A stretch of DNA of 64,000 nt, from assembly GCF_025753855.1 (NCBI RefSeq), contig NZ_JAOWPT010000004.1:167871-231870 (forward strand). Direction: 5' to 3'. How positions within the stretch are numbered: the stretch's first letter is position 1; every line of letters begins with the position of its first letter. The stretch comes from Mesorhizobium sp. ZC-5 (lineage in GTDB: Bacteria > Pseudomonadota > Alphaproteobacteria > Rhizobiales > Rhizobiaceae). Made by a program: the position numbers and the translations under genes. The notes beneath the pieces were generated by a model. The model had not been told where the DNA came from and did no database searches. It worked only from the letters and a program-made list of their open reading frames with translations. This document shows, one piece after another, positions 1,803 to 50,617 of this stretch.

Positions 1803-1808
1803 GATGTG

Positions 1809-2705: not shown

Positions 2706-2713
2706 CTCCACTC

Positions 2714-3775: not shown

Positions 3776-3784
3776 TTCAGTCCC

Positions 3785-6877: not shown

Positions 6878-6911
6878 AGACAACCGCGGACGACCGGACT
6901 AACGCCTCGCG

Positions 6912-7208: not shown

Positions 7209-7220
7209 AAGGAACCAACC

Positions 7221-7535
7221 ATGTACATCGCGATGAACCGCTTCAAGGTGCAGAACGGCTCGGAAGAGGCGTTCGAGAACGTCTGGAAGAACCGCGATTC
7301 CAGCCTGTCCGAGATGAAGGGATTCCAGCAGTTCCATCTCCTGCGCGGGCCGGTCAACGAGGCCGAAGGCTATACGCTGTTCGCCTCCCACACGGTCTGG
7401 GCTTCGCACGAGGATTTCGTCGCCTGGACGAAGTCGCAGAACTTCCGCGACGCGCACAAGAACGCCGGCAACAACAAGACGGTCTATCTCGGCCACCCGC
7501 AGTTCGAGGGTTTTTCGGTCGTCGAAGGGGCTTGA
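7221..7535 (+). CDS. hmuQ: IsdG/ABM-family heme-degrading monooxygenase (HmuQ-like)
   Basis: 104 aa. N-terminal catalytic Asn (MYIAMNRFKV). The stretch TVWASHEDFVAWTKSQNFRDAHKN aligns with the IsdG motif [24 protein letters not shown] (Trp/His triad). RBS gaaagga. Confidence 0.7.
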   Translation: MYIAMNRFKVQNGSEEAFENVWKNRDSSLSEMKGFQQFHLLRGPVNEAEGYTLFASHTVWASHEDFVAWTKSQNFRDAHKNAGNNKTVYLGHPQFEGFSVVEGA

Positions 7536-11453: not shown

Positions 11454-11619
11454 GCTTTCCCCCGTCGGTCGATTGAGAGTGATCCGGAATCCGCGCTTCG
11501 GCAAGCACACGGTGGCGGCTCTATAGCACGGCCGGAATCAGCCGGCCGACTGAAGAACTGGAAAATCGCGATCAAACAGCCTATCAAGGGTTCTGAAGAA
11601 TCCCATTTGGACCATAAAT

Positions 11620-12075
11620 TTGATGAATTCAGATCAACTGGACCGTATCGACCGCAACATGCTCGCCGCCCTGGCGCGCGACGGCCGTCTTTCGATGGCC
11701 GAACTGGCGGCCAAGGTCGGGCTGTCGAAGACGCCGGTGCAGGCGCGCGTACGGCGGCTGGAGAAGGACGGTTATATCCGCGGCTATTCCGCCGTCATCG
11801 ACCGCGAGAAGATGGGCGAAGGCCACGTCGCCTTCGTGCAGGTGAAACTGTCGGACACCCGCTCGCTGGCACTCAACGAATTCAACCGCGCCGTCCGGGC
11901 CGTGCCGGAGATCGAGCAGTGCCACATGATGGCGGCGAGCTTCGACTATCTCCTGAAGGTGCGCACCCGCGACATCGCCGCCTACCGCCGCGTGCTCGGC
12001 GAGCGCATCTCGGCGCTGCCCCACGTCGCCCAGACCTCGACCTTCGTGGCGATGGAGACGGTGAAGGACAGGTAG
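11620..12075 (+). CDS. putR: Lrp/AsnC-family transcriptional regulator, divergent from putA (PutR-like)
   Basis: 151 aa. HTH_AsnC followed by a RAM domain. Classic putR-putA divergent arrangement. Confidence 0.75.
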   Translation: MMNSDQLDRIDRNMLAALARDGRLSMAELAAKVGLSKTPVQARVRRLEKDGYIRGYSAVIDREKMGEGHVAFVQVKLSDTRSLALNEFNRAVRAVPEIEQCHMMAASFDYLLKVRTRDIAAYRRVLGERISALPHVAQTSTFVAMETVKDR

Positions 12076-12112
12076 GCGCTGCAAAGTCCACCCGAAGAGA
12101 TCCATCGATCAA

Positions 12113-12484
12113 TCAGTTTTCGGGGGATTTGAACTCCAGCGTGTAAACCCTGCCCGCGATCCCAGCCGCCAACGATGGCGCAAACTCCAATGGCAGGCAT
12201 TTGTCCATCGCCGCGATGGCCGCGGCAACGAACGCCTCCCTTGCCTTCTGGTCTCCCTCGACGTTGATCGCAGTCGGTCGCGGCGTGCCGATCAAGCTCC
12301 CGTCGCGCTTGAAGCTGAAACTCAAGGTGACGAATGCTCCGTCCGTGCCGGACGGCGGCGACCAGCATTCCATCAGCGCCGCTCCGACGTCATCCATGGT
12401 CTTGAGCGGGTCTGCCCGGGATTGCACGGTTGCTATTATCATCGTGCCGCCAATGACCGCAGCCAATATCCCCGTTCTAGTCAC
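12113..12484 (-). CDS. Hypothetical secreted protein
   Basis: GTG start after a perfect RBS (ggaggatcgttGTG). Signal peptide VTRTGILAAVIGGTMIIATVQSRA | DPL. No recognisable domain. Confidence 0.5.
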   Translation of the reverse strand: MTRTGILAAVIGGTMIIATVQSRADPLKTMDDVGAALMECWSPPSGTDGAFVTLSFSFKRDGSLIGTPRPTAINVEGDQKAREAFVAAAIAAMDKCLPLEFAPSLAAGIAGRVYTLEFKSPEN

Positions 12485-12763
12485 AACGATCCTCCGAGAG
12501 ATTTGACCCGCAGGCCGGTTGCGCGCAACCGGAATCACGCAGGTCACGTCGCCTTCCTCGTGGTGCTTGGCGACGTTGGCATAATAAACATCCAGCCCTG
12601 CCTGGCCACCCGTCGGCCTTCAAGATTCCGAAGCGAACGAGATACATCGATCAACTTGTTCGGCCATCGTTCCGAAGCAGACTGTCCTTGCAGGATAACA
12701 CCACACCGATCTGCCATCAGATCGGGCCTGTTGCGCGATTGTCCGCTGCGATATCCTTGGGCG

Positions 12764-13822
12764 ATGAAACTCAGCCAGAGCATCCGGTTCTGCGCCTCAG
12801 CCGACGGCACCCGCATCGCCGTCGCGTCGTGCGGGGAAGGACCGGTGATCCTGCGGGCGGCGCACTGGCTGAGCCATGTCGACTACGATCTCGAAAGCCC
12901 GGTGTGGCGGCCGTGGCTTCAGGCGCTTTCGGCCCGCAACCGGTTCGTGCGTTACGATCCGCGCGGCTGCGGCCTGTCGGACCGGCATGTCGCTGACCTG
13001 TCGCTTGAGGCGTGGCACACCGACCTGGAGGCCGTGGCCGCGTCGATCGAGGAGCCGCGCTTCGTCCTCCTCGGTCTTTCGCAAGGCGGCGCGCTCGCCG
13101 TCGCATATGCGCTGAGGCATCCCGAGCGCGTATCGCATCTGGTGCTCCTGAATGCCTACGGTCGAGGTGGGCGAGTTCGGGCGCAGACGGATGCCGAGCG
13201 GCTGGAGGCCGAGACTCTGGTCAATTTCATTCGCATCGGCTGGGGGCGCGACAGTCCCGCGTTCTGCCAGTTCTTCACCAATCTCTTCATACCTGACGGA
13301 ACGCCAGAACAGCATCGCTGGTGGGGCGATCTCGAGCGCGTGACCGCAACCGCCGACGTTGCCGCGCAACTGCTCTGGCAGATGCAGGGGATCGACGTGC
13401 TTGACCTTGCCGCGCAGATCCGCGTCCCGACGCTGATCGCGCATTGCCGCGGCGACATGCGCGTCCCGTTTGACGAAGGCTGCAAGCTCGCAGCCGCGAT
13501 CCCGGGCGCGCGTTTCGTGCCGCTCGACAGCAAGAACCATGTGCTCTTGCCGGACGAACCGGCCTGGGGCGTGTTCCAGACCGAACTCGCCGCCTTCCTC
13601 GGGCAGGATCGGCCGAGGCAGCCGCGCGCGATCCGCGAGGCCGGTCTTACGCCCGCCGAGGCAGCGCTTCTGAACCTCGTCGCGGAAGGGCTCGACAACC
13701 GCTCGATCGCCGAGCGCCTCGGCAAGCGCGAGAAGACCGTCCGCAACCAGCTGTCGGTGATCTTCGGCAAACTCGGCGTCCACAACCGCTCGCAGGCGAT
13801 CGTCATGTCGCTTTCCGGATAA
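12764..13822 (+). CDS. Alpha/beta-hydrolase domain fused to a C-terminal LuxR-type HTH. Transcriptional regulator with an apparently intact hydrolase fold.
   Basis: Start at MKLSQSIRF. Nucleophile elbow GLSQGG (GxSxG). C-terminal LTPAEAALLNLVAEGLDNRSIAERLGKREKTVRNQLSVIFGKLGV matches the LuxR/FixJ HTH. Confidence 0.7.
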   Translation: MKLSQSIRFCASADGTRIAVASCGEGPVILRAAHWLSHVDYDLESPVWRPWLQALSARNRFVRYDPRGCGLSDRHVADLSLEAWHTDLEAVAASIEEPRFVLLGLSQGGALAVAYALRHPERVSHLVLLNAYGRGGRVRAQTDAERLEAETLVNFIRIGWGRDSPAFCQFFTNLFIPDGTPEQHRWWGDLERVTATADVAAQLLWQMQGIDVLDLAAQIRVPTLIAHCRGDMRVPFDEGCKLAAAIPGARFVPLDSKNHVLLPDEPAWGVFQTELAAFLGQDRPRQPRAIREAGLTPAEAALLNLVAEGLDNRSIAERLGKREKTVRNQLSVIFGKLGVHNRSQAIVMSLSG

Positions 13823-25256: not shown

Positions 25257-26012
25257 CTATCGCGGTATCAGCGTCGCGAAATTCTCGTCGATGGCGCGGT
25301 GCACGAGGCCGCTGTAATGCGCGTGGCATTCGTGGCCCTTCTCGATGCGGCCGAAGCTTGCCTTGCCGGCAAGCCGCTTCAGCGGCGCCAGCACGATCGG
25401 CGTCGACACAGGAAAGAGGTTGGTGCCCCTGCCCGACTGCAGCGTGGTCAAAAGGCCGAACATCTCGCCCGAAATGGTCGGCTTGGACACCACGATCAGC
25501 CGGTACTGGCCGAATTTGTTGGTGACCAGGTAGATGAAACCAGACTGGTGCGGGATCGAGACATGGCCCTGCTGGGTGAAGGCGGCGTCGATGCGTTCCG
25601 ATTCGGTGAAGACGAGATGCGAATGGTCGTCGTTCCAGCCGATCTCGGTCACATAGGCATAGATGGCGCCGGGGCTGGAGAATGATGGCCTGAGCGTCAG
25701 GTAGCCGCCTTCGATCCACGACACCGCCGGACGCGCATAGGAACCGAGTTCTTCCGGCGCCACGCCGTTAAGGCGGTCGGCGGCCCTCGCCTGGCTTTGC
25801 GGCCGCAACGCGACGCCGAGCGCCGTTTCCAGCCGCACGATGCTGGCCAGCGTGAACGGCCGCTGGCCGGACAGCGCCTTCTCCAGCGTCGACAGGCTGA
25901 TCTTCGCCTGGTCGGCGAGGAACTGCCTGGTGATGCGCTGCCTCGCCAGCGCCTCGCGCACGATGCCGGCAACCGTATCGTTCTCGGCGGCGGAAAGCGT
26001 CTGCTCGGTCAT
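25257..26012 (-). CDS. XRE-family HTH transcriptional regulator with a C-terminal domain of unknown function
   Basis: Start at MTEQTLSAAE. HTH region QFLADQAKISLSTLEKALSGQRPFTLASIVRLE. Divergent from the sortase-target operon. Confidence 0.6.
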   Translation of the reverse strand: MTEQTLSAAENDTVAGIVREALARQRITRQFLADQAKISLSTLEKALSGQRPFTLASIVRLETALGVALRPQSQARAADRLNGVAPEELGSYARPAVSWIEGGYLTLRPSFSSPGAIYAYVTEIGWNDDHSHLVFTESERIDAAFTQQGHVSIPHQSGFIYLVTNKFGQYRLIVVSKPTISGEMFGLLTTLQSGRGTNLFPVSTPIVLAPLKRLAGKASFGRIEKGHECHAHYSGLVHRAIDENFATLIPR

Positions 26013-26031
26013 CGGGAGATGTTGTGTGCGT

Positions 26032-26051
26032 ACATTTCCACACATTTCCAC
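26032..26051. promoter_or_regulatory. Tandem 10-bp direct repeats acatttccac x2 (a second pair, gatttgc x2, is at 26174-26193) in the XRE/sortase-target divergent promoter
   Basis: Low-GC stretch gtgcgtacatttccacacatttccacatcttg. Candidate operator. Confidence 0.3.
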
Positions 26052-26214
26052 ATCTTGTTTCCGGCAGCAATGCGGCACGGCGGAAACCGGCAAGACAAGG
26101 CCGAAGAAGACCGGACTTCCCGCTCGAATTCGAACGCAATCGGACCACAGATCGGTCCTCAGCCGCACACAATGATTTGCGCAGATTTGCACGGGTGCGG
26201 AGTGGGAGCCTGAC

Positions 26215-28362
26215 ATGAAACGATTGCTGATAACCTTCTTTGCCGTGCTTGCGACGGCCATCGCGGCGATGGCCGCGACCTTTGTAAAACCCAACGACAT
26301 GGGCACCGGGGCGCTGCTGTTCAAAAGCAACGAGCCCGGACAATTCGTCGAGGCGCCGCGCGTGGCGTCCGACTTCGACATTTCCGTCACCGGACAGATC
26401 GCCCGGACGCGGGTGACGCAGCAATTCCGCAACCCGGCGAAGGGTTGGGTCGAAGGCGTCTATGTCTTCCCGCTGCCCGAAAACGCCGCCGTCGACACGC
26501 TGAAGATGGTGATCGGCGACCGCGTCATCGTCGGCGACGTCAAGGAAAGGCAGGAAGCCAAGCGCATCTACGAACAGGCCAAGGCCAACGGCGAAAAGAC
26601 CGCCCTGCTGGAACAGGAGCGGCCGAACCTCTTCACCAACCAGGTCGCCAACATCGGCCCCGGCGAAACGATCGTCATCCAGATCGAATACCAGCAGCCG
26701 GTGCGCCAGTCGGGCGGCGTCTTCAGCCTGCGCGTGCCGATGGTGGTCGCCCCGCGCTACAATCCAGCGCCCGAACTCGTCGCTGCCGTGTCGGCCGACT
26801 CGGTCGAGATGTACACCGTTTCCGACCCGGTGCCGGATCGCCAGCGCATTGAGCCGCCGGTGCTCGACCCGCGCTCCAACGCGCCGGTCAACCCGATCAC
26901 CCTGGCGATCGACCTCAAGCCCGGCTTCGACCTCGGCGAGGTGAAAAGCTCGTATCACGATGTGAACGCGACGGGCGACGCATCCGCCAGGAAGATCTCT
27001 CTGAAGAACCCGGAATTTGCCGACCGCGATTTCGAACTGACCTGGGTCGCCAAGTCAGGCAAGGAACCGGCGGTCAGCCTGTTCAACGAAAAGGTGGCTG
27101 GCAACGATTATGCACTGCTGCAGATCACCCCGCCGGAACCGCAGGCTGAACAGAAGCGCCTGCCGCGCGAGGCGATCTTCGTCATCGACAATTCCGGCTC
27201 GATGGGCGGCCCTTCAATGGGCCAGGCCAAGGCGAGCCTCGTCTATGCGCTGGACCGGCTGGAGCCGGGCGACAAGTTCAACGTCATCCGTTTCGACGAC
27301 ACCATGGAGACGGTGTTCGCCCAAGCGGTCGAGGCGAGTCCGGAAAACATCAATTACGCCAGGAGCTTCGTCAACGCGCTTGAAGCGTCGGGCGGCACCG
27401 AGATGGTGGAGCCGCTGCGGGCTGCGCTCCGCGACAGCAATGCCGGGGATGGCTCGCTGCTTCGCCAGGTGGTGTTCCTCACCGACGGCGCCATCGGCAA
27501 CGAACAGCAGATGTTCGACCTCCTCGGCACCATGCGCGGCCGCTCCCGCGTGTTCATGGTCGGCATCGGCTCGGCGCCGAATTCCTTCCTGATGAACCGC
27601 ATGGCCGAACTCGGTCGCGGCAGCTTCACCCAGATCGGCGAAGGCGGCCAGGTCGAGCAGCGCATGCGCGAGCTGTTCGCCAAGCTCGAAAACCCGGTGG
27701 TCACCGAGCTGAAGGCAGCGGCGAGCGATGCCGCGATCGAAGTGACGCCTTCCACCTTGCCCGATCTGTACAAGGGTGAGCCGCTGACGCTGCTGGTCCG
27801 GGCGAAGGAGCTGAAAGGCGATATCGCCGTCTCTGGAATGGTCTCCGGCAGACCGTGGAGGCAGAATATCGCGCTCGACACCGCCGTCCCCGGCTCCGGC
27901 ATCTCGAAACTGTGGGCGCGCCGCAACATCGACGATGCGGAAGTGGCGCAAAGTCTTGGCCAGATCAGCCCGAGCGACGCCGACCGCCGCATCCTGGCGC
28001 TGGCGCTAGAGCATCATCTGGTCAGCCGGGTGACCAGCCTGGTCGCGGTCGACAAGACGCCGTCGCGCAAGCCCGGCGAGAAGCTGACCCGCACCGACGT
28101 GCCGCTCAACCTGCCCGCCGGCTGGGACTACGACAAGGTGTTCGGCGAGCAGAAACCCGTGCTGGAGCGCGAGGCGATGCTCGACCCAACGCTGATCGCC
28201 TCGACCAGGAATGCGCCCGCAGCGCAGTCGCCGGATGCGCAGCAGCAGATCGACCTGCCGCAGACGGCGACGCCTTCGCAACTGCTGATGATCGCCGGCG
28301 CGCTGATCATGGCGCTGGCGCTTCTCCTGCAATTCTGGTCACGCCGCACGAGGGTGGCATGA
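26215..28362 (+). CDS. Sortase substrate with a VIT domain, a vWA domain and a C-terminal LPQTA sorting signal (marine-proteobacterial sortase target family)
   Basis: Signal peptide MKRLLITFFAVLATAIAAMA. N-terminal VIT region. vWA MIDAS motif (DNSGSMGG ... TDG). C-terminus IDLPQTATPSQLLMIAGALIMALALLLQFWSRRTRVA is motif, then TM, then basic tail. Confidence 0.8.
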   Translation: MKRLLITFFAVLATAIAAMAATFVKPNDMGTGALLFKSNEPGQFVEAPRVASDFDISVTGQIARTRVTQQFRNPAKGWVEGVYVFPLPENAAVDTLKMVIGDRVIVGDVKERQEAKRIYEQAKANGEKTALLEQERPNLFTNQVANIGPGETIVIQIEYQQPVRQSGGVFSLRVPMVVAPRYNPAPELVAAVSADSVEMYTVSDPVPDRQRIEPPVLDPRSNAPVNPITLAIDLKPGFDLGEVKSSYHDVNATGDASARKISLKNPEFADRDFELTWVAKSGKEPAVSLFNEKVAGNDYALLQITPPEPQAEQKRLPREAIFVIDNSGSMGGPSMGQAKASLVYALDRLEPGDKFNVIRFDDTMETVFAQAVEASPENINYARSFVNALEASGGTEMVEPLRAALRDSNAGDGSLLRQVVFLTDGAIGNEQQMFDLLGTMRGRSRVFMVGIGSAPNSFLMNRMAELGRGSFTQIGEGGQVEQRMRELFAKLENPVVTELKAAASDAAIEVTPSTLPDLYKGEPLTLLVRAKELKGDIAVSGMVSGRPWRQNIALDTAVPGSGISKLWARRNIDDAEVAQSLGQISPSDADRRILALALEHHLVSRVTSLVAVDKTPSRKPGEKLTRTDVPLNLPAGWDYDKVFGEQKPVLEREAMLDPTLIASTRNAPAAQSPDAQQQIDLPQTATPSQLLMIAGALIMALALLLQFWSRRTRVA

Positions 28363-32573: not shown

Positions 32574-32747
32574 GCATCCAAAGCAACAAGAAGGGCCGTC
32601 CGTTTGCACGGACGGCCCTTCGTTTCTATCTGTTTAGCGCCGCTGGCCGGCAGGCGGGAGCATTTCGCCCTTTTCCTGCAAGGCAAAACCGATTAGAGAG
32701 CCCGACAAACTTCATCCTTGAATCCGACCCTATCGAGGGAATTGCCT

Positions 32748-33032
32748 GTGTCCACCACATTTGAAAAAGTTGCGAAAATCATTGCCGATACCAGCGAGAT
32801 CGATATCGATTCGATCACGCCGGAGAGCCATACGATCGATGACCTCGGTATCGACAGCCTCGATTTCCTCGACATCGTGTTCGCCATCGACAAGGAATTC
32901 GGCATCAAGGTGCCGCTCGAAAAGTGGACCCAGGAAGTCAATGATGGCAAGGTCTCGACGGAAGAGTACTTCGTCATGAAGAACCTCTGCGCCAAGATCG
33001 ACGCCCTCGTCGCCGCCAAGAACGCCGTCTGA
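32748..33032 (+). CDS. acpXL: Specialised acyl carrier protein for the lipid A very-long-chain fatty acid
   Basis: GTG start ([19 protein letters not shown]...). Phosphopantetheine site [14 protein letters not shown]. First gene of the acpXL-fabF2XL-fabF1XL-adh-lpxXL set. Confidence 0.8.
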
Positions 33033-33065
33033 CCGGCGTTTCCAGCCGAACAACCACGGACAACC

Positions 33066-34253
33066 ATGAGCGCCCGCGACGTCGTCATCACCGGCATCGG
33101 CCTCGTCTCATCGCTTGGCGAAGGCGCCGACGCGCACTGGCAAAAACTGTCGGTGCCGGGCGTCAAGCCGGTTGTCGACGAAGCGCGCTACGCGCCCTAC
33201 ACCGTGCATCCGCTGCCCGAAATCGACTGGAGCCTGCAGATCGCCAAGCGCGGCGACCAGCGCCAGATGGAAAACTGGCAGCGGCTCGGCACCTATACGG
33301 CGGGCCTCGCGCTCGACGATGCCGGGGTGAAGGGCGACGAAGCGCTCTGCTCCACCATGGACATGATCGTCGCCGCCGGCGGCGGCGAACGCGACGAGGC
33401 GGTGGATCAGGGCATTCTCGATGCCTCGGCCACCCGCAACGACCGTGACGTCCTGCTCAACGAAAAGCTCACCACCGAGCTTCGCCCGACGCTTTTCCTG
33501 GCGCAGCTTTCCAACCTGCTGGCCGGCAACATCTCCATCGTCCACAAGGTAACGGGATCCTCGCGCACCTTCATGGGCGAAGAAGGCGCCGGCATCTCGG
33601 CGGTCGAGACGGCCGCCGCACGCATCCGCTCGGGCCGCTCGACCCATGCGCTGGTGGGGGGTGCCTTCCAGACAGAGCACTCCGACATGCTGCTGGCCTA
33701 TGAACTCGCCGGCTATCTGCATCGCGGCGCCTGGAAATCCGTGTGGGAGCGCAAGCGCTCCGAAGGTGGCGGTGTCGTCACCGGCTCGGGTGCGGCATTC
33801 CTCGTGCTGGAATCGCGCGAACATGCGCAAAAGCGCGGGCGCGATGTATACGCGGCGCTGGGTCCAGTCGCTTCGGGGCGCCACCAGCGTTCCGGCGACG
33901 GGTTGTCGACCGCGGTGACCGACCTCGTCAGGGCGACGGGCATTCCGGCCGGCCGACTGCTGGCGCTCTCCGGCGCTTCGGGTGCCCATGCGGCGACCGC
34001 TGCCGAAAAGGCGGCGCTCGCCGCGGCCGGGGAAATTGCCGTGCGCGGCGTCTCGACGGTTACCGGCCATTTGAAAGAGGCACAGTTCCCGTTCGCCATC
34101 GCGCTGGCGGCGCTCGCCGTGAAGAACCGCGCCGGCTATCCGGCCTTCGACGGCGCCAACGAGCCGGCCTTCGACGGCGCGCCCGAGGCTGCACTCGCCA
34201 CCGCGATCGGCTACCATCGCTTCGAAGGCGCGGCGCTCATCAGCCGAGCGTAA
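33066..34253 (+). CDS. fabF2XL: Beta-ketoacyl-ACP synthase-like protein (KAS / chain-length-factor type)
   Basis: 395 aa thiolase-fold KAS homologue directly after acpXL. Confidence 0.7.
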   Translation: MSARDVVITGIGLVSSLGEGADAHWQKLSVPGVKPVVDEARYAPYTVHPLPEIDWSLQIAKRGDQRQMENWQRLGTYTAGLALDDAGVKGDEALCSTMDMIVAAGGGERDEAVDQGILDASATRNDRDVLLNEKLTTELRPTLFLAQLSNLLAGNISIVHKVTGSSRTFMGEEGAGISAVETAAARIRSGRSTHALVGGAFQTEHSDMLLAYELAGYLHRGAWKSVWERKRSEGGGVVTGSGAAFLVLESREHAQKRGRDVYAALGPVASGRHQRSGDGLSTAVTDLVRATGIPAGRLLALSGASGAHAATAAEKAALAAAGEIAVRGVSTVTGHLKEAQFPFAIALAALAVKNRAGYPAFDGANEPAFDGAPEAALATAIGYHRFEGAALISRA

Positions 34254-34272
34254 GCGCGCAAAGGAAAAGGTC

Positions 34273-35544
34273 ATGGCAAGAACCAAAGACCATCTCGGCA
34301 GGCCGGTCGTGGCCGTCACCGGCATCGGCGTCGTCACTTCGCTCGGCATCGGCAAGAAAGACAATTGGGCGGCCCTAACCTCGGGGCGCTCCGGCATTCA
34401 TCCGATCACGCGCTTTCCTGTCGATCACATGAACACCCGCATCGCTGGTACCGTCGATTTTCTCGGCTCGAGCGACAAGGGCGCGACCGCCCTCACCTAC
34501 GAACTGGCGGAAACGTCGGCCCGCGAGGCGCTCGACGAAGCCGGTTTCACCAACGGCCATTTCGCCGGTCCGCTGTTTCTCGCCTCGCCGCCGGTCGAGA
34601 TGGACTGGCACGACCGTTTTGCGCTCTACAATTCGGTCAGCGAACCCGAGGGTTACCAGCGCCTGCTCACCGTCGGCCGCAATTTGCAGACGCATGAGAT
34701 CTTCGAATCCACGCAATTCGGCTCGATCGCCGACCGGCTCGCCGATCGCTTCGGCACGCAGGGCCTGCCGGTGACGCTGTCGACGGCCTGCGCCTCGGGC
34801 GCCACCGCGATCCAGCTTGGCGTCGAGGCGATCCAGCGCGGTGAGACCGATCGCGCCATCGCCATCGGCGCAGACGGCTCGGCGACCGCCGAGGCGCTGA
34901 TCCGTTTCTCGCTGCTGTCGGCGCTATCGACCAGCAACGACAACCCGGAACGGGCCTCCAAGCCGTTCTCGAAGGACCGCGACGGTTTCGTGCTTGCCGA
35001 AGGTTCGGCGGCACTGGTGCTGGAATCGCTCGAAAGCGCCGAGGCGCGCGGCGCCACGATACTCGGCATCATGCGCGGCTGCGGCGAGCGCGCGGACGAT
35101 TTCCACCGCACCCGCTCGAAGCCGGACGGTTCGCCGGCCATCGCCGCCGTGAAGGCGGCGCTGGCCGACGCCGGCCTCCGCGACGACGAGATCGACTATG
35201 TCAACGCGCACGGCACTTCGACGCCGGAAAACGACAAGATGGAGCATCTGTCGCTGTCGACGGTGTTCGGCGAGCGCATCCGTTCGATCCCGGTATCGTC
35301 GAACAAATCTATGATCGGCCACACGCTCTCGGCGGCGGGTGCCATCGAGGCGGCCTTCTCGCTGCTGACCATGCGCGAAGGCGTCATCCCCCCGACCATC
35401 AACTACGACAACCCCGATCCGGCGATCGAGCTCGACGTGGTGCCCAACGTCAAGCGCGAGGCCAAGGTGCGCACCGTGCTTTCCAATTCGTTCGGTTTCG
35501 GCGGCCAGAACACCTGCCTTGTCATGGCGCGGGAACCGGTCTAA
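34273..35544 (+). CDS. fabF1XL: 3-oxoacyl-ACP synthase II (FabF-like)
   Basis: Active-site Cys context (STACASGATAIQ) and C-terminal GHTLSAAGAIE / NSFGFGGQN. Confidence 0.8.
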   Translation: MARTKDHLGRPVVAVTGIGVVTSLGIGKKDNWAALTSGRSGIHPITRFPVDHMNTRIAGTVDFLGSSDKGATALTYELAETSAREALDEAGFTNGHFAGPLFLASPPVEMDWHDRFALYNSVSEPEGYQRLLTVGRNLQTHEIFESTQFGSIADRLADRFGTQGLPVTLSTACASGATAIQLGVEAIQRGETDRAIAIGADGSATAEALIRFSLLSALSTSNDNPERASKPFSKDRDGFVLAEGSAALVLESLESAEARGATILGIMRGCGERADDFHRTRSKPDGSPAIAAVKAALADAGLRDDEIDYVNAHGTSTPENDKMEHLSLSTVFGERIRSIPVSSNKSMIGHTLSAAGAIEAAFSLLTMREGVIPPTINYDNPDPAIELDVVPNVKREAKVRTVLSNSFGFGGQNTCLVMAREPV

Positions 35545-35578
35545 GCGACCGGTTCCGATCGCCATTTCAGGAAAAACA

Positions 35579-36607
35579 ATGCGTGCATTGCAACTCGTCG
35601 AGGACCGCAAGCTCGAGATCGTCGATCTCGCGCCGCCGTCGGCACCCGAACGCGGCGAAGTCACGCTGCGCATCAAGGCGGTGGCGCTGAACCACATCGA
35701 TGTCTGGGGCTGGCGCGGCATGGCCTTCGCCAAGCGCAAGATGCCGCTGGTCATCGGCGCCGAGGCCTCCGGCGAGGTCGATGCCGTCGGCCCGGGCGTC
35801 TCTAACCTGCTGCCCGGCCAACTGGTTTCCATCTACGGCGCCCGCACCTGCGGGCTGTGCCGTCCCTGCCGCGAAGGTCGCGACAATCTCTGCGAACATG
35901 TTTCGGGCGTGCACGGCTTCCATCTGGACGGTTTTGCCCAGGAGAAGATCAATCTCCCGGCAAGATTGCTGGTCCCTGCCCCACCCGGTGTCAGCGATAT
36001 CGCGGCGGCTGTCGCCCCGGTCACCTTCGGCACTGTCGAGCACATGCTGTTCGACAATGCGAAATTGCAGCCCGGCGAGACGATCCTCGTGCATGCCGGC
36101 GGTTCCGGCATCGGCTCGGCGGCGATCCAGCTTGCCAAGCGCATGGGCTGCACCGTCATCACAACGGTCGGTTCGGATGCCAAGATCGAGAAGGCCAAGG
36201 CGCTTGGCGCCGACCATGTCATCAACTACCGCGAGGACCGCTTCGAGGGCGTGGTGCGCAAGCTGACGAGAAAAAAGGGCGTCGACGTCGTATTCGAGCA
36301 TGTCGGCGCGGATACCTGGGCCGGCTCCATGCTTTGCATGAAGCGTGGCGGGCGCCTGGTCACCTGCGGTTCGACATCCGGCGTCTCGACTCAGATGAAC
36401 CTGATGCAGCTCTTCCAGCAGCAGTTGAAGATCCTCGGCTCGTTCGGCTGCCGCATGGAGAACATGGCCGACGCCATGCAGAAGATGGCGGCAGGCATCG
36501 TCAGCCCGGTGATCGACACCGAAACGGGTTTCGACGACATCGACACGGCGCTGAAACGCATGGAAGGCCGCGACGTCTTCGGCAAGATCATCCTGCGGGT
36601 GAACTGA
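35579..36607 (+). CDS. Zinc-binding alcohol dehydrogenase / MDR-family oxidoreductase of the acpXL cluster
   Basis: Start at MRALQLVED. GroES-like and Rossmann motifs (GGSGIGSAAIQLAK). Confidence 0.8.
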   Translation: MRALQLVEDRKLEIVDLAPPSAPERGEVTLRIKAVALNHIDVWGWRGMAFAKRKMPLVIGAEASGEVDAVGPGVSNLLPGQLVSIYGARTCGLCRPCREGRDNLCEHVSGVHGFHLDGFAQEKINLPARLLVPAPPGVSDIAAAVAPVTFGTVEHMLFDNAKLQPGETILVHAGGSGIGSAAIQLAKRMGCTVITTVGSDAKIEKAKALGADHVINYREDRFEGVVRKLTRKKGVDVVFEHVGADTWAGSMLCMKRGGRLVTCGSTSGVSTQMNLMQLFQQQLKILGSFGCRMENMADAMQKMAAGIVSPVIDTETGFDDIDTALKRMEGRDVFGKIILRVN

Positions 36608-36667
36608 CGCCATGATCCCGAAGCGCGGGACTCGGTCTTCGGACTCGATCACGGTTGGCAAGAACTG

Positions 36668-37624
36668 ATGCGGCCAATCATCGCGAAATTGCTGCAAGGC
36701 CTGAAACAGCTGAATTACTGGCTGGTCGCCCAGCTGGCGCTGGCCGTGCTGACCGTGCTGCGCCTGCTGCCGCCGGACAAGGCTCTGAACTTCGCCGACC
36801 GCGCGGCCCGGAAAGTCGGCCCGTGGATCGGTCGCCATCGGGTCGCTCTCGACAATCTCAGGAAAGCCTATCCCGAGAAGACCGAGGCCGAGATCGAAGC
36901 GATCGCGCTCGACATGTGGGGCAACATGGCCCGGCTCGGTGCTGAATACATCTTTCTCGACCAACTGTTCGATTACGTGCCGGATGTACGCACCGATGGC
37001 CGAATCGAGGTTTCCGGCAAGGAAACATTCCTCAAGCTGGCAGCCGAAAAAGACCGGCCGCACATTATCTTCACTGGCCATCTCGGCAATTTCGAGCTGC
37101 TCCCGGTGGCGGGCGCGGCCTTCGGGCTCGCCGTCACCGCGATGTTTCGCCCGCCGAACAATCCCTACATCGCCGAATATGTGTTCTCGACGCGGCAGTC
37201 GAAGATGGGCGGGCTGCTGGCCTCGCGCGCCGGCGCAGCCTTCGCGCTGGCCCGCATCCTCGAGGCCGGCGGCAATATCGGCGTGCTGGTCGACCAGAAG
37301 TTCCAGTACGGCATCCGGACGCAATTTTTCGGTCGCGAATGCGAAACGAGCCCCTTGGTGCCGAAACTCGCCAAGCAATATGACTGCGACGTTTACCCGG
37401 CCCGCTGCATTAGATTGCCTGGCAACAGGTTCCGGTTGATTCTTCAGGAAAGACTCGAATTGCCCCGCACCGGTGACGGCCAGGTCGACGTGGCCGCGAC
37501 CGCGCAGGTTCTGACCGATATTGTTGAAGGATGGGTGCGCGAAGATCCGGGGCAGTGGATGTGGTTCCACAAGCGCTGGAACATCACTCCGCCGAAGCCG
37601 AATCGCGCCAAACGCGCCGCTTAG
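36668..37624 (+). CDS. lpxXL: Lipid A biosynthesis very-long-chain acyltransferase (HtrB/MsbB family)
   Basis: 318 aa LpxL-family protein (...IFTGHLGNFELL...), last gene of the cluster. Confidence 0.8.
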   Translation: MRPIIAKLLQGLKQLNYWLVAQLALAVLTVLRLLPPDKALNFADRAARKVGPWIGRHRVALDNLRKAYPEKTEAEIEAIALDMWGNMARLGAEYIFLDQLFDYVPDVRTDGRIEVSGKETFLKLAAEKDRPHIIFTGHLGNFELLPVAGAAFGLAVTAMFRPPNNPYIAEYVFSTRQSKMGGLLASRAGAAFALARILEAGGNIGVLVDQKFQYGIRTQFFGRECETSPLVPKLAKQYDCDVYPARCIRLPGNRFRLILQERLELPRTGDGQVDVAATAQVLTDIVEGWVREDPGQWMWFHKRWNITPPKPNRAKRAA

Positions 37625-37627
37625 CCG

Positions 37628-38566
37628 TTAGCCGCCGTAGTAGTTCATCACGGCGTGGCGGGCTTCCGCAAAGAACAGCCAGCGTTCGGCCAGCATGCCG
37701 ATGATGTGCGAAATGACCGCAAGCGTCATTGCCAGTATAGCCGCCAGTCCCCCACCTGCACCTGCCACCGTCGTGACCAGCAGCATGAAAACCAGCGCGG
37801 CGGGCAGCAGGCCGCCAAGCAGCAGCGCAAGCCGCCGCAGCTTCACGGCGTGCTTGCGCGCGATGCGGAAACCCATTTCGCGCGTCAGGTAGTTTTCGGT
37901 CATATGCGGACGTTCAAAGAGCCGGACACGACCGATATTTCCGAGACCGGTGGCGGTTTCAGGCGTCGATAGCGGGACAAGCCCATCCATGTTGCGGCGC
38001 CAGGCAATCTTCACCACCCAGGCGGCAATGGTGAAAAGCAGCGCCAGCAGCAGCAGGAAAAGCCCCGAGTTTCTTCCAGCCATGGCAAAGAAGGCGCCCA
38101 GCAGCGAACCGCCTGCCGCGGCGAAGAGCAAGTAGCAAAGCGGCGTGAGCGGCGTGTGCCAGGCCTGCACGGATTTGAGCGAGGCGTAGATCATCGCCGT
38201 GCAGTAGACGGTGACCCCGGCCAGCACGGTTCCGAGCAGCCCCGGCAGCACCAGGTACCGGCTTTCGATCACCGATGCCCAGGCCGACCACAGAAGCGGC
38301 AGGAAGGTGAGGATCGCCATCACGCCTTCGCGTGACAGCCAACTCGACCGCCATTGGCTCAGCGCCCGCCAGGCGCGCTGCGGATTGCCGAGATGCAGCG
38401 TCGACGAGAGCAGACCGATCGCGATCATCAGCAGCGCCAGAACATGCGCGACCTTGGTCAAGGTGAGCGACGGGTCGAGCAGCCCAAGCCCCAATATCGC
38501 GGCAAGGCCGTAGCCGAGGCCGGAAAGCGTGGTGAAGACGATGATCGAAGGCGCCGGATGCATCAA
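37628..38566 (-). CDS. NrfD/DmsC-type membrane anchor subunit of a molybdopterin oxidoreductase (SoeC-like)
   Basis: 312 aa polytopic membrane protein. A 4-nt ATGA overlap with the upstream FeS-subunit gene. Confidence 0.65.
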   Translation of the reverse strand: MMHPAPSIIVFTTLSGLGYGLAAILGLGLLDPSLTLTKVAHVLALLMIAIGLLSSTLHLGNPQRAWRALSQWRSSWLSREGVMAILTFLPLLWSAWASVIESRYLVLPGLLGTVLAGVTVYCTAMIYASLKSVQAWHTPLTPLCYLLFAAAGGSLLGAFFAMAGRNSGLFLLLLALLFTIAAWVVKIAWRRNMDGLVPLSTPETATGLGNIGRVRLFERPHMTENYLTREMGFRIARKHAVKLRRLALLLGGLLPAALVFMLLVTTVAGAGGGLAAILAMTLAVISHIIGMLAERWLFFAEARHAVMNYYGG

Positions 38567-39330
38567 ATCCGCTCCAGAACGCCATCGAGCCAGGCAAAGA
38601 AGCCTTTCGCGCCGTCGGTGTTTTCCGCCAGCGGCATCAAGGGCGCACCGGCTGCGAGGCTCTTGCGCGGCCGCGGCGGCAGATATTTGTTGACCGGCCG
38701 CGTCCCCTGCTCCGGCATCAGGTCCATGCCGCCGCGCTCCATTGTCATGATCGAGACGGCCGATTGGGGATCGGAAAAATCACCGAAATGGCGGGCGTTG
38801 GCGGGGCAGGTACGCACGCAGGCGGGCTGGCGGTCCGCCTCCTCCATCGTCTCGTTGTAGATGCGGTCGATGCACAGCGTGCATTTCTTCATGACGCCGG
38901 CCGCCAGGTCCATCTCGCGCGCGCCATAAGGACAGGCCCAGGCACACAGTCCGCAGCCGATGCACATGTCCTCGTCGACGAGTACGATGCCGTCTTCGGC
39001 CCGCTTGTAGGAGGCGCCGGTCGGGCAGACGGTGACGCAGGGCGCGTCCTCGCAGTGCAGGCAGGATTTCGGGAAGTGTACGATCCGCGCCTCACCCGCC
39101 TCGCCGACGATCTCGCCGCCCTCGGGCACCACTTCGAAAGTGTGGACACGGTTCAGCCAGGCGCCGGAAACGTCCGCGCCATAGGGGGCCTGGTCGGACA
39201 GCGCCGAACCGTAACCACCGGTGTTCCATTCCTTGCAATTGACGACGCAGGCGTGGCAGCCGACGCAGACATCGAGATCGATGACAAGGCCGAGCTTTTT
39301 CGGCGTCGGCAACGCGGGAAGCAAGGTCAT
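38563..39330 (-). CDS. Four-cluster [4Fe-4S] ferredoxin-type electron-transfer subunit (DmsB/SoeB-like)
   Basis: Start at MTLLPALP (RBS ggagtggg). Four Cys clusters (CVGCHAC, CLHCEDAPC, CIGCGLCAWAC, CTLCIDR...C). No Tat signal. Confidence 0.7.
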   Translation of the reverse strand: MTLLPALPTPKKLGLVIDLDVCVGCHACVVNCKEWNTGGYGSALSDQAPYGADVSGAWLNRVHTFEVVPEGGEIVGEAGEARIVHFPKSCLHCEDAPCVTVCPTGASYKRAEDGIVLVDEDMCIGCGLCAWACPYGAREMDLAAGVMKKCTLCIDRIYNETMEEADRQPACVRTCPANARHFGDFSDPQSAVSIMTMERGGMDLMPEQGTRPVNKYLPPRPRKSLAAGAPLMPLAENTDGAKGFFAWLDGVLERI

Positions 39331-42176
39331 TTCGCCCACTCCTGCCCGTACCGCAGTTGCTCGACCTCGACATGCGTTCTGCCGGGTTCGGCAACCGTCG
39401 CAAAATGCGGCTCACTGATTTCCGCCGGTTCCGCCTTCTCGATGCGCACGCGCAGATCATACCAGGCCGCCTGCCCGGTGACCGGATCGGAGTTCGACCA
39501 CCGCAGGCCATCGCCTTTCGGTGGTAGAAGTTCATGAATCAAGTGGTTCATCAGGAAGCCTTTTCTGGCTTCCGGCGCATCCTGGTCAAGGGCCCAGGCA
39601 CCCTTGCGCTTGCCGATCGCATTCCAGGTCCAGATGGTGTCGCGGTTGACTGCGTCGCTGCGTGCGATCTCGACCTTGATACGGCCGTGGTGGGAGATCA
39701 CCCAGATCCAGTCGCCGTCGGCGAGCCCCATCTCGTCGCAGATCGGACCCGGCACATAGAGGGGGTTGCGGGTGTGAATCTGCCTGAGCCAGGCATTCAT
39801 CGAACCCCAGGAATGGTACATCGCCGCCGGCCGCTGGGTGATCGCGTGATATGGAAATTTTTCGCGGTCGACCGCGGCTTCCTCGAATGGCCGATACCAG
39901 TCCGGCAGCGGCGAAAACGTGTCGAGGATGCGCTGCCGATGGGTCTCGGGAGCTTTCGGCTCGCGCACGCCCTCGGCCGAAAGCCGGAACTTCTGCAGCG
40001 ATTCCTGGTAAAGCTGGAAGGTCACCGGCTTCGGCTGGTCGAAGAAGCCCATTTTTACGGCGAAGTCCTGGTACGCCTTGTTGGCGTGCTTGAAGAACTG
40101 CGCCTCCATCGGAATGTGGGCGGAGAAAAAAGAGCCGTTCTCGATGTAGCGCTTCAACTGATCCGGATTGGCAGCACCCCTGCCCGTCCGGTCGCCGTTG
40201 ACGCCGCGAAAACCAGCCAGCGGCCCGATGCCCGGCCGCCGCTCGTGGCGAACGATATAGTCGGCGTAGTCCTTGTAGAGCGCCTTGCCCCGCTGATCGA
40301 CGAAACCGTTGAGCTTCAGCCGCGCGGCGAGATCGAGCAGCACGGTCTGGAAACCGCGCACATCGCGGTCCGGTTCGATCACCGGCCAGCGGATGGCATC
40401 CTGTACCGCGTCCGGCTCGGAAATCGGCCGGTCGAGCAGCGAAATGCAATCATGGCGCTCCAGGTAGGTGGTATCGGGCAGCACGAGGTCGGCATAAGCG
40501 ACCGTTTCCGAGGCATAGGCGTCGGAATAGATGATTTTCGGGATCTTGTAATCGCCTGTGGCGGGATCCTTGTCCTCCAGCATCCTGATGACGCCGGCGG
40601 TGTTCATCGACGAGTTCCACGCCATGTTGGCCATGTAGAGGAACAGCACGTCGACCGGGTAAGGATCGCCGGCATGCGCATTGGCGATGACCATGTGCAT
40701 GGCGCCGTGCACGGCAAACGGCGCATCCCAGGAAAATGCCTTGTCGATGCGGTTCGGGCGGCCCTCGGCGTCGATCAGCATATCTTCCGGGCCGCGCGGA
40801 AAGCCGAGATGCGGGCCGGAAAGCGGCTTGTTCGAGCCGAAATGCTCGGCGCGGCCATGCGGCGTCGGATGCGCCTCGACCGGCTTCGGATAGGGCGGCT
40901 CGAAGCGGAAGGCGCCGGGACAATCGACCGCGCCGATCAGCACCTGCAACATGTGCAGCGCGCGCGCCGTCTGGAAACCGTTGGAATGCGCCGAGAGCCC
41001 GCGCATCGCGTGGAAGGACACCGGGCGGCCGATATAACTTTCATGCCGCTCACCATGCATATCGGTCCAGGGTTGATCGATGCTGATCGTTTCCTCGAAG
41101 GCGACGCGGGCAATCTCCGCGGCAAGCCCGCGAATGATTTCCGGCGCGATGCCGGTCTCCCCGGAAACAGCCTCCGGTGCGTATTGCGGGTCGAGATATT
41201 TTTCGGCGAGCAACTGGAACGACGGCACGGCAAAGCGCCCGTCGTCGAGTTGGAAGCGGCCGGACAGCGCCGGCCGGGCGCCCCTGGTGCCTTCCGCAAC
41301 CGGTCGCTCCGTAACCGTCTCGAAGATCAACGGCTTGCCGTCGGCATCGCGGGCGAACAAGCCATGCTCAGCCGTACCCGGCGCGTCGATGACCAGCCAC
41401 GGGGCGTTCGAATAGCGCACCAGATAGTCGACGTCGATCTTCCGAGCCTTCAGCAATTCGTGCACGACGGCGAGAATCAGCAACCCGTCCGTGCCGGGCC
41501 GGATACCTATCCAGTTGTCGGCGACCGCGGAGTAGCCGGTGCGCACCGGATTGACCGAGATGAAGCGCGCGCCGTTCTTCTTGACCTTGGCGATGCCCAT
41601 CTTGAGTGGGTTGGAATCATGGTCTTCGGCAACCCCGAACATGACGAACAGCCTGGTCCGGTCCCAGTCGGGCGCGCCGAACTCCCAGAAGGCGCCACCA
41701 ATGGTCATGATGCCCGCCGCCGCCATGTTGACCGAGCAGAAGCCGCCATGCGCGGCATAGTTGGGCGTGCCATATTGCTGCGCCCAGAAACCGGTGAGCG
41801 ACTGCGACTGGTCGCGGCCGGTGAAGAACGCAAGTTTCTTCGGATCGCTCTCCCGGACCCGCCCGAGCCAGTCGGCGGCCAGCGTCAGCGCCTCGTCCCA
41901 GGAGATTTCCTTGAATTCGCCGGATCCGCGCGGCCCGGTCCTGAGCAGCGGCGCACGCAGCCGCGCCGGCGCGTAATGCTGCATGATGCCTGCCGATCCC
42001 TTGGCGCAGAGCACGCCCTTGTTGACCGGGTGGTCGCGATTGCCCTCGATGTAGCGGATCTTGCCGTCCTTGATGTGGACGTTGATGCCGCAGCGGCAGG
42101 CGCACATGTAGCATGTGGTCTTGCGGACTTCGTCGGCTACCGGCTTCGACAGCGCGACTCGCAAAGTGGACTTCAT
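39327..42176 (-). CDS. Molybdopterin-dependent oxidoreductase catalytic subunit with an N-terminal 4Fe-4S motif and no Tat signal (SoeA-like sulfite dehydrogenase candidate)
   Basis: 949 aa. CYMCACRCG...LCAKG is a C-x2-C-x3-C-x-C cluster. MGD-binding regions. The N-terminus MKSTLRVALSKPVADEVRK lacks RRxFLK. Confidence 0.7.
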   Translation of the reverse strand: MKSTLRVALSKPVADEVRKTTCYMCACRCGINVHIKDGKIRYIEGNRDHPVNKGVLCAKGSAGIMQHYAPARLRAPLLRTGPRGSGEFKEISWDEALTLAADWLGRVRESDPKKLAFFTGRDQSQSLTGFWAQQYGTPNYAAHGGFCSVNMAAAGIMTIGGAFWEFGAPDWDRTRLFVMFGVAEDHDSNPLKMGIAKVKKNGARFISVNPVRTGYSAVADNWIGIRPGTDGLLILAVVHELLKARKIDVDYLVRYSNAPWLVIDAPGTAEHGLFARDADGKPLIFETVTERPVAEGTRGARPALSGRFQLDDGRFAVPSFQLLAEKYLDPQYAPEAVSGETGIAPEIIRGLAAEIARVAFEETISIDQPWTDMHGERHESYIGRPVSFHAMRGLSAHSNGFQTARALHMLQVLIGAVDCPGAFRFEPPYPKPVEAHPTPHGRAEHFGSNKPLSGPHLGFPRGPEDMLIDAEGRPNRIDKAFSWDAPFAVHGAMHMVIANAHAGDPYPVDVLFLYMANMAWNSSMNTAGVIRMLEDKDPATGDYKIPKIIYSDAYASETVAYADLVLPDTTYLERHDCISLLDRPISEPDAVQDAIRWPVIEPDRDVRGFQTVLLDLAARLKLNGFVDQRGKALYKDYADYIVRHERRPGIGPLAGFRGVNGDRTGRGAANPDQLKRYIENGSFFSAHIPMEAQFFKHANKAYQDFAVKMGFFDQPKPVTFQLYQESLQKFRLSAEGVREPKAPETHRQRILDTFSPLPDWYRPFEEAAVDREKFPYHAITQRPAAMYHSWGSMNAWLRQIHTRNPLYVPGPICDEMGLADGDWIWVISHHGRIKVEIARSDAVNRDTIWTWNAIGKRKGAWALDQDAPEARKGFLMNHLIHELLPPKGDGLRWSNSDPVTGQAAWYDLRVRIEKAEPAEISEPHFATVAEPGRTHVEVEQLRYGQEWAK

Positions 42177-42214
42177 CGGCGGGCTCCCTGAGCCCCCTGT
42201 CCTATAGGCCGGTC

Positions 42215-42258
42215 GAAAGAAAGAAAATGGGGACGGGCGTCCTTTCAGGGCGCCCTGT
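42215..42258 (-). terminator. Rho-independent terminator of the L,D-transpeptidase gene
   Basis: Minus-strand read: gggcgccctgaaaggacgccc hairpin followed by ccattttctttctttc. Confidence 0.4.
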
Positions 42259-42312
42259 CTAAAATTTGTATATACTTATCCGCCCCAGCGAACGTACTGG
42301 CGCGCCAACCGG

Positions 42313-49831: not shown

Positions 49832-50617
49832 ATGATCGATCCCGCCACCGATATCATCCTGCTGCTTTGCATCGCCGCCTTCTGCGGCGGTTTCATCGAT
49901 TCGATCGCCGGGGGCGGCGGGCTGATCACCGTGCCGGCCCTGCTGCTGGCCGGCTTCAGCCCGGTCCAGGCCCTTGCCACCAACAAGCTGCAAGGCGTGT
50001 TCGGTACGGGCGCTGCAACCATCACCTATGCCTCGAAAGGCCTGGTCGATCTGCGCCGCCAATTGGTCCCGGCCGTCCTGTCCTGCGCCGGTTCGGTGGT
50101 CGGCGCTCTGGTCGCCACGGTGATTCCCGGCGACCTTCTGCGCATCGCCCTGCCCTTCCTTTTGATCGCCATAGCGATCTATTTCGTCCTCAAGCCCAAC
50201 ATGGATGATATCGACCGCGCCGAGCGCATGTCGCCATTTCTGTTCGGGTTGAGCATCGTGCCGCTGATCGGCTTCTACGACGGCATGTTCGGTCCTGGCG
50301 CCGGTTCCTTCTTCATGCTGGCGTTCGTTTCCCTCGCCGGCTACGGGGTCCTGAAGGCAACGGCCCACACCAAGCTGCTGAACTTTGCTTCCAACGTTGG
50401 CGGCCTGGCCTTTTTCGCCGCCGTCGGCGCGGTGTCGTGGAAAGTCGGCCTGATGATGGGCGTGGTGCAGGTTCTCGGCGCCCGCATGGGAGCGAGGCTT
50501 GCCATGAAGAACGGCGCCAAACTGATAAAGCCCTTGCTGGTGATCGTATGCGTGGCGTTGGCACTGCGGCTGCTGCTCGATCCGGCACACCCCTTGCGTG
50601 TAATGATTGGCGGCTAA
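49832..50617 (+). CDS. TSUP-family (TauE/SafE) anion exporter
   Basis: 261 aa, 8 TM, duplicated GxxxG-rich halves. Confidence 0.8.
   Translation: MIDPATDIILLLCIAAFCGGFIDSIAGGGGLITVPALLLAGFSPVQALATNKLQGVFGTGAATITYASKGLVDLRRQLVPAVLSCAGSVVGALVATVIPGDLLRIALPFLLIAIAIYFVLKPNMDDIDRAERMSPFLFGLSIVPLIGFYDGMFGPGAGSFFMLAFVSLAGYGVLKATAHTKLLNFASNVGGLAFFAAVGAVSWKVGLMMGVVQVLGARMGARLAMKNGAKLIKPLLVIVCVALALRLLLDPAHPLRVMIGG

Follow-up and report, generated by a model that had tools for sequence, protein, structure and literature searches.

The closest described systems to the locus studied here are the SoeABC sulfite dehydrogenases. The Allochromatium vinosum complex (Alvin_2491-2489) is attributed to Dahl et al. 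2013, as cited in two later papers (PMC6397845, PMC8076601), and in sulfur lithotrophs SoeABC acts downstream of rDsr or sHdr (PMC6397845). In Ruegeria pomeroyi DSS-3 the genes form part of a cluster comprising SPO3562 (tauR), xsc, SPO3560 (pta) and SPO3559-3557 (soeABC) (PMC4334477). Proteins of a soeABC-pta-xsc locus increase on 2,3-dihydroxypropane-1-sulfonate (DHPS), and SoeA has been described as a sulfite dehydrogenase feeding quinone (PMC13335735). SoeC is found in ~14% of sequenced alphaproteobacterial species (PMC8076601), and soe genes have been recorded in the related genus Aquibium (PMC11356281). Here we describe a three-gene operon, soeA-soeB-soeC, in a 64,000-nt stretch of Mesorhizobium sp. 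ZC-5 (contig NZ_JAOWPT010000004.1, positions 167,871 to 231,870), referred to below as the window. Sequence comparison suggests, with a probability that we put at roughly 85%, that the operon encodes a SoeABC-type complex that would oxidise cytoplasmic sulfite to sulfate at the molybdenum of SoeA and pass the electrons through five [4Fe-4S] clusters to reduce quinone at SoeC.

Organisation of the soe operon

Three co-directional open reading frames (ORFs) occupy positions 37628-42176 of the window on the minus strand, in the order soeA-soeB-soeC. An initial annotation had placed a molybdopterin oxidoreductase operon at exactly these coordinates, with a 949-amino-acid (aa) catalytic subunit carrying an N-terminal Cys4 motif, and both points were reproduced. 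The features of the operon are as follows.

39327..42176, minus strand: soeA, 949-aa catalytic subunit with a molybdenum-bis(pyranopterin guanine dinucleotide) cofactor (Mo-bisPGD) and without a signal peptide (from ORF, translation and Pfam)
38563..39330, minus strand: soeB, 255 aa from ATG, ferredoxin-type subunit with four Cys groups (16 Cys) and without a twin-arginine translocation (Tat) motif
37628..38563, minus strand: soeC, 311 aa from ATG, haem-less DmsC/NrfD-like anchor with eight membrane helices, predicted N-in/C-in
42006..42113, minus strand: FS0 [4Fe-4S] motif, soeA codons 22-57, read from the translation
41736..41738, minus strand: codon of soeA Cys147, the predicted Mo ligand in the GGFCSVNMAAAG motif
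42177..42312, minus strand: 136 bp from the ykuD stop to the soeA start, with a hairpin, a T-rich tail and a ribosome-binding site

The genes are tightly packed. All of them had been annotated as linked by ATGA overlaps, which holds for the A/B junction, AAATGACC, where the soeB ATG overlaps the soeA stop, but not for the B/C junction, TTTGATGCAT, where the soeC start lies on the soeB stop in a 1-nt TGA/ATG overlap (TGATG). An alternative TTG start of soeC at 38566 would give a TTGA overlap with the soeB stop. The GC content at third codon positions was of the coding type in all three ORFs (0.79-0.82; window 64% GC).

Upstream of soeA, an AGGGAG ribosome-binding site lies 6 nt before the ATG. 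Direct reading of the gap between ykuD and soeA revealed a GC-rich hairpin with a T-rich tail, which is likely the ykuD terminator. A consensus scan of this 136-bp region found no sigma-70-like promoter, and a promoter and terminator scan of the operon returned nothing exceeding the shuffled background. GC content was level across the operon and matched that of the flanks. Together with the synteny lpxXL-soeCBA-ykuD-M20 in ~8 related genomes, this led us to reject a recent horizontal acquisition of the operon.

SoeA has molybdopterin oxidoreductase domains and no Tat leader

The soeA product matched PF04879 (Molybdop_Fe4S4), PF00384 (Molybdopterin) and PF01568 (Molydop_binding). Its N-terminus, MKSTLRVALSKPVADEVRKTT, runs directly into the cluster motif C22-x2-C25-x3-C29-x27-C57, leaving only 21 residues ahead of the first cluster ligand. 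The soeA ATG is preceded by an in-frame stop 34 codons upstream, and between the two there is neither an ATG, GTG or TTG nor an RR pair, which leaves no room for a hidden Tat leader. This agrees with the earlier claim that SoeA and SoeB lack a twin-arginine leader, and the upstream in-frame Tat motif that would have spoken against that claim was absent from all 34 codons. The same architecture was found in the orthologs: CYMCACRCG[IV] was present in all 67 that have the N-terminal Cys motif, with ~20 residues ahead of it, and none of the 67 carried a genuine Tat motif, the three RR hits being read-through upstream of the real Met. Cys147 of SoeA aligns with Cys173 of Thermus thermophilus PsrA (2vpw), which we take to be the Mo ligand of that enzyme, and the surrounding GGFCSVNMAAAG motif was invariant in a 25-sequence SoeA alignment.

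No NCBI curated model reached its cut-off with SoeA. The top NCBIfam match was the PhsA model NF012032 (187 bits vs cut-off 694), and the DmsA/YnfE model TIGR02166 (133 vs 778), the TtrA model NF011567 (88 vs 1750) and the ArrA model (80 vs 1600) scored lower still. NCBI thus has no SoeA family. The nearest solved structure was T. thermophilus PsrA 2vpw (E 3e-36), matched mainly over residues 14-256, and a SoeABC structure was not found in the PDB. An AlphaFold2 model of SoeA built from the 25-sequence alignment was poor (mean predicted local distance difference test score 52.5). SoeA has neither the model scores nor the Tat leader that mark the thiosulfate/polysulfide reductases (PhsA/PsrA) and the tetrathionate reductase TtrA. 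With DmsABC/YnfEFGH, which are marked by DmsA and DmsB scores above cut-off, a Tat leader and an anchor with periplasmic termini, the operon shares only the Pfam DmsC domain.

SoeA falls within a Tat-less clade that includes Ruegeria

A scan of one genome per species yielded at least 594 confirmed relatives, the best 80 of which were kept for locus counts. The closest database proteins came from Mesorhizobium, Aminobacter and relatives (84-99% identity), and the Joint Genome Institute (JGI) name 'sulfite dehydrogenase (quinone) subunit SoeA' is attached to relatives 94, 87 and 84% identical. SoeA identity was 80-87% in Phyllobacteriaceae-type genomes (best 80 loci), 68-70% in Hoeflea, 63-67% in Ruegeria, Sulfitobacter, Roseobacter, Yoonia, Cereibacter and others, and 61-64% in metagenome-assembled genomes of Hyphomicrobiaceae and Beijerinckiaceae. 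A betaproteobacterial branch, many members of which are also JGI-named SoeA, was 53-56% identical, and the catalytic-site region was invariant between its members and the window SoeA.

In a neighbour-joining tree rooted on E. coli DmsA, the window SoeA was placed within the Tat-less clade alongside Ruegeria sequences, with the betaproteobacterial branch as sister to this clade and the Tat-bearing proteins outside. Clustering with Psr, Phs or Ttr, which had been named in advance as the outcome that would overturn the SoeABC-like assignment, was not seen in the tree or in the curated model scores. Identity was 66% over 928 aa (98% of length) with the protein of R. lacuscaerulensis ITI-1157 (P0487) and 66-67% with three Ruegeria species. 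The DSS-3 SoeA was absent from 120 Ruegeria-type clusters matched by a four-Ruegeria profile and from the member lists of eight clusters. Judged through these congeneric proxies, the identity of 66-67%, the matching gene order and the shared tree clade point to orthology with SPO3559.

The next relatives beyond the Tat-less clade, P0128 (Desulfitobacteriaceae) and P0144, were 34-41% identical, and P0144 bears the twin-arginine leader MSIRRRHFLQ. The two make up a sister group of SoeA, uncharacterised so far and presumably exported. The SoeA family has very few full-length representatives in the 50%-identity library; fragments and frameshifted metagenome proteins such as P0193 and P0220 made up most of what the library yielded, and a cluster look-up gave names for almost none of its representatives. 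A search from the betaproteobacterial representative P0121 retrieved Burkholderiales only.

SoeB and SoeC are predicted to face the cytoplasm

SoeB matched the four-cluster Fer4_11 type in Pfam. Its cysteines fall into the groups CX2CX2CX3C, CX2CX4CX3CP, CX2CX2CX3CP and CX2CX17CX3CP, which gives 16 Cys for four cubane clusters. No RR was present near the N-terminus of the translation, and the DmsB model TIGR02951 scored 125 bits against a cut-off of 214.

SoeC had been annotated as an NrfD-type anchor. The term holds in the superfamily sense, SoeC and DmsC having been placed in one NrfD-like group (PMC8076601), but the Pfam match is DmsC (PF04976, E 4.4e-17) and not NrfD. A sequence search of the PDB with SoeC gave no match. 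Hydropathy analysis revealed eight helices. The N-terminal-side loops contain 20 Lys and Arg residues, those of the opposite side 3, and the Lys/Arg-rich loops are 55-82 and 185-246. The same script gave 4 and 8, respectively, for E. coli DmsC, the termini of which are presumably periplasmic. The bias of SoeC was kept across a 59-row alignment of the window protein and 58 orthologs (median 17 vs 1, smallest difference 12). The loop after helix 2 reads HLGNPQRAW in SoeC and HLGSPMRAF in DmsC. Since the charge bias of SoeC is the inverse of that of DmsC, the HLGNPQRAW loop would lie on the cytoplasmic side. The docking loops of SoeC are thus predicted, by the positive-inside rule, to face the cytoplasm. 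An inverted insertion of SoeC relative to DmsC and PsrC was also predicted by Calisto and Pereira (PMC8076601).

The soe genes of relatives are linked to xsc

To place the operon in context, all flanking ORFs of the 80 loci were clustered and the recurrent clusters annotated. The soeB gene directly follows soeA in 75 of the 80 loci and soeC comes next in 72, most exceptions to the order soeA-soeB-soeC being contig ends. Upstream of soeA and on the same strand, the most frequent gene was xsc, which lies directly adjacent in 28 loci (TIGR03457, 921 bits vs cut-off 676). A MocR/TauR-type regulator (16 loci), a class-III aminotransferase (13), a gene for a 259-aa PF01925 protein (11) and the phosphate acetyltransferase gene pta (8) were also recurrent there. 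Ruegeria arenilitoris (L027) has the order regulator-xsc-pta-soeA-soeB-soeC, which is that of SPO3562-3557 in R. pomeroyi DSS-3. Xsc is the sulfoacetaldehyde acetyltransferase and releases sulfite in the cytoplasm, and the conserved position of its gene next to soeA thus strongly indicates the function of the clade to which the window SoeA belongs.

Several loci deserve separate mention. The gene for the 259-aa PF01925 protein lies between xsc/pta and soeA in L022 (9079-9858) and in ten other Rhodobacterales loci, and its product may work with SoeABC in these bacteria as a sulfite or sulfate exporter. In a metagenome-assembled genome of the Granulosicoccaceae (Gammaproteobacteria; L045), SoeA is 65% identical, groups with the alphaproteobacterial sequences and has xsc directly upstream, which suggests that the xsc-soeABC module moved horizontally or that there is a binning error. 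Two further metagenome-assembled loci, L082 (Hyphomicrobiaceae, 10001-12784) and L011 (Neomegalonema, 10001-12820), carry soeA but no soeB or soeC that could be recognised downstream of it. In L082 the next ORF encodes 1060 aa and lies on the other strand. A split system or an assembly artefact could account for these two loci.

Neighbourhood of the operon in the window

The soe operon stands alone between genes for very-long-chain fatty acid modification of lipid A and ykuD.

32718-37624, plus strand: Rhizobiales-type lipid A very-long-chain fatty acid cluster, comprising a carrier protein, two ketoacyl synthases, a Zn-dehydrogenase and a lipid A acyltransferase
49832-50617: TauE-family gene (PF01925, 172 bits), 7.66 kb from the soeA start

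In the lipid A cluster, the acyl carrier protein gene occupies 32718-33032, and the acyltransferase gene ending at 37624 (PF03279; best NCBIfam model NF005120, lauroyl acyltransferase) is taken from these matches to be a putative lpxXL. The gap between the carrier protein gene and the first synthase gene is 33 nt. We presume that a fabZ-type dehydratase gene sits there in the Rhizobium and Sinorhizobium clusters; given the size of the gap, it is missing at that position in the window. Beyond the soeA start lie ykuD, which encodes an L,D-transpeptidase, and the gene for an M20 peptidase; a peptide ABC transporter, the TauE-family gene and the gene for an AraC-type regulator follow. No rDsr or sHdr genes were found in the window.

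Two regions away from the operon were also noted. A haem-uptake cluster at 702-7535 encodes a FecCD-type permease, HemS/ChuX, HemP, a TonB-dependent receptor and an ABM monooxygenase, and contains two small ORFs without a family (6428-6877 and 6912-7208). Further on, a 391-aa ORF with a weak HTH_3 match (25257-26432, minus strand) overlaps by ~200 nt the start of the gene for a 715-aa VIT/von Willebrand factor A protein (26215-28362, plus strand), and one of the two starts was probably miscalled by the longest-ORF rule.

Proposed function and alternative explanations

In the mechanism that we propose, SoeA (Mo-bisPGD, predicted Cys147 ligand, one N-terminal [4Fe-4S] cluster) and SoeB (four [4Fe-4S] clusters) would fold and remain in the cytoplasm and would dock onto SoeC, a haem-less NrfD/DmsC-like anchor of eight helices inserted opposite to DmsC, on its cytoplasmic side. 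Sulfite made in the cytoplasm would be oxidised to sulfate at the Mo centre, and the electrons would reach a quinone site in SoeC through the chain of five clusters before entering the respiratory chain. Substrate, catalytic direction and quinone coupling are carried over from published work on A. vinosum, R. pomeroyi and Aquifex aeolicus and are expected to apply here. The absence of a Tat leader, the charge bias of the anchor, the clade, the xsc linkage of relatives and the JGI names all support the initial reading of a Tat-less, cytoplasm-facing, SoeABC-like enzyme.

Several points weigh against this assignment. For this particular operon the function is deduced by comparing sequences, and the cytoplasm-facing topology is a positive-inside prediction. 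Orthology was assessed with congeneric Ruegeria proxies and gene order in place of Alvin_2491, SPO3559 and the A. aeolicus protein. The 64-kb window holds no recognisable gene for a sulfite-producing enzyme (no xsc, tauXY, tpa, suyAB or cuyA). The A. aeolicus enzyme, moreover, was reportedly first described as a sulfur/tetrathionate-reducing complex, and the family may not be strictly unidirectional.

The initial annotation had also drawn on the TauE/SafE-type gene, whose position 7.7 kb away and PF01925 membership were confirmed, and had linked the operon to taurine or sulfonate catabolism. Operon and TauE-family gene would then form a sulfite-handling module for such catabolism in this organism. 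The link of the soeABC family to the desulfonation of sulfoacetaldehyde is strong in Rhodobacterales, where a TauE-family gene indeed lies between xsc/pta and soeA in the 11 loci described above. Against this, the M20 peptidase gene and the complete peptide ABC transporter stand between the soe operon and the TauE-family gene, and a homolog of the latter lies less than 10 kb from soeA in only 3 of the 80 loci, all of them close relatives; in the other close relatives L005, L009 and L076 it is not within that range. The best curated match of the gene is the YfcA-like model PRK10621, which it does not reach (265 bits vs cut-off 383), and its product has no similarity to the soe-adjacent Rhodobacterales PF01925 protein (E 0.61), belonging to a different subfamily. 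The TauE-family gene was dropped as context evidence on these grounds, and we consider such a module unlikely. The family as a whole is linked to taurine or sulfonate catabolism, and since the window lacks a desulfonation gene, this link can only be extrapolated to the present organism. It is very doubtful, though conceivable, that the soeABC of Phyllobacteriaceae, a vertically inherited stand-alone operon beside the lipid A genes that has become separated from all sulfonate and lithotrophic sulfur clusters, serves as a constitutive housekeeping enzyme or has a shifted substrate. It might then clear sulfite from the turnover of cysteine and other sulfur amino acids, or from plant-derived sulfonates in the course of symbiosis, and not belong to a dedicated dissimilatory pathway.

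A complex of the same composition and topology might also act on another substrate or in the other direction, as a cytoplasm-facing quinol-dependent reductase or as a dehydrogenase, the substrate being some other sulfur or oxyanion compound (tetrathionate, thiosulfate or polysulfide, for instance). Both the nearest structure (PsrA) and the top NCBIfam model (PhsA) are of polysulfide/thiosulfate reductases, automated names of family members include 'tetrathionate reductase subunit A' and 'formate dehydrogenase', and the operon has no sulfur-related neighbours here. Yet the PsrA/PhsA-type matches fall far short of the curated cut-offs and are largely confined to the N-terminal third, and Psr, Phs and Ttr are Tat-exported, as SoeA cannot be. 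Orthologs 63-67% identical adjoin xsc, whose product is sulfite, and the catalytic-site region does not differ from that of the betaproteobacterial members, many of them named SoeA by JGI. This makes a different substrate or direction distinctly unlikely. A periplasmic location, reached by an unrecognised export route or by piggy-back on a Tat substrate, would make the complex a DmsABC/PsrABC-like respiratory enzyme, and all other characterised three-subunit Mo enzymes with NrfD/DmsC anchors do face the periplasm (PMC8076601). Such a location is barely credible, given that neither SoeA nor SoeB has a signal sequence, that the 67 orthologs likewise lack a Tat motif, that the conserved charge bias of the anchor is opposite to that of DmsC and that the nearest Tat-bearing relatives stand in a separate clade.

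If sulfite oxidation by a SoeABC-type complex is the correct assignment, this Mesorhizobium/Aminobacter-like bacterium can oxidise intracellular sulfite and gain respiratory electrons, which would bear on its tolerance of sulfite and on growth with organosulfonates or reduced sulfur. Such biology is to be expected. The novelty is low, since JGI already names proteins 84-94% identical as SoeA. The practical value lies in annotation, where there is a systematic gap for SoeA proteins: with no SoeA family among the NCBI curated models, public names are inconsistent. Those found in the clade include 'molybdopterin oxidoreductase family protein', 'formate dehydrogenase', 'anaerobic selenocysteine-containing dehydrogenase' and 'tetrathionate reductase subunit A precursor'.

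Comparison with known systems

T. thermophilus PsrABC (2vpw-2vpz) shares with the window operon a Mo-bisPGD subunit with Cys at the aligned position, a four-cluster subunit and an eight-helix haem-less anchor. It differs in being periplasm-facing and Tat-exported, and the opposite catalytic direction is expected. The anchor of E. coli DmsABC has the Pfam DmsC domain and the HLG(N/S)P(Q/M)RA(W/F) loop in common with SoeC, whereas DmsA has a Tat leader and is ~27% identical to SoeA, and the DmsC anchor has the reverse charge bias.

The A. vinosum subunits are ~109, 27 and 36 kDa, and their sizes appear similar to those of the window proteins. Like the window operon, A. vinosum SoeABC combines a Mo subunit, an iron-sulfur subunit and an NrfD/PsrC-like eight-helix anchor, with the same predicted cytoplasmic orientation (PMC8076601). 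The window differs from the sulfur lithotrophs in having no rDsr or sHdr genes within its 64 kb.

R. pomeroyi DSS-3 SoeABC (SPO3559-3557), compared via congeneric Ruegeria, has the same gene order and subunit types. The Ruegeria SoeA proteins lack a Tat leader and share the CYMCACRCG and GGFCSVNMAAAG motifs with the window SoeA, and SoeB and SoeC are ~65-70% and 40-45% identical, respectively. In Ruegeria the operon is joined to tauR-xsc-pta, sometimes with a TauE-family gene, whereas in the window it stands alone between lpxXL and ykuD. In its A-B-C composition, the absence of a Tat or Sec signal on SoeA and SoeB and the predicted inverted anchor, the window operon agrees with SoeABC (sulfite dehydrogenase, quinone; KEGG K21307-K21309). 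It is an ordinary member of this known, well-described family, and its close relatives are already annotated as such.

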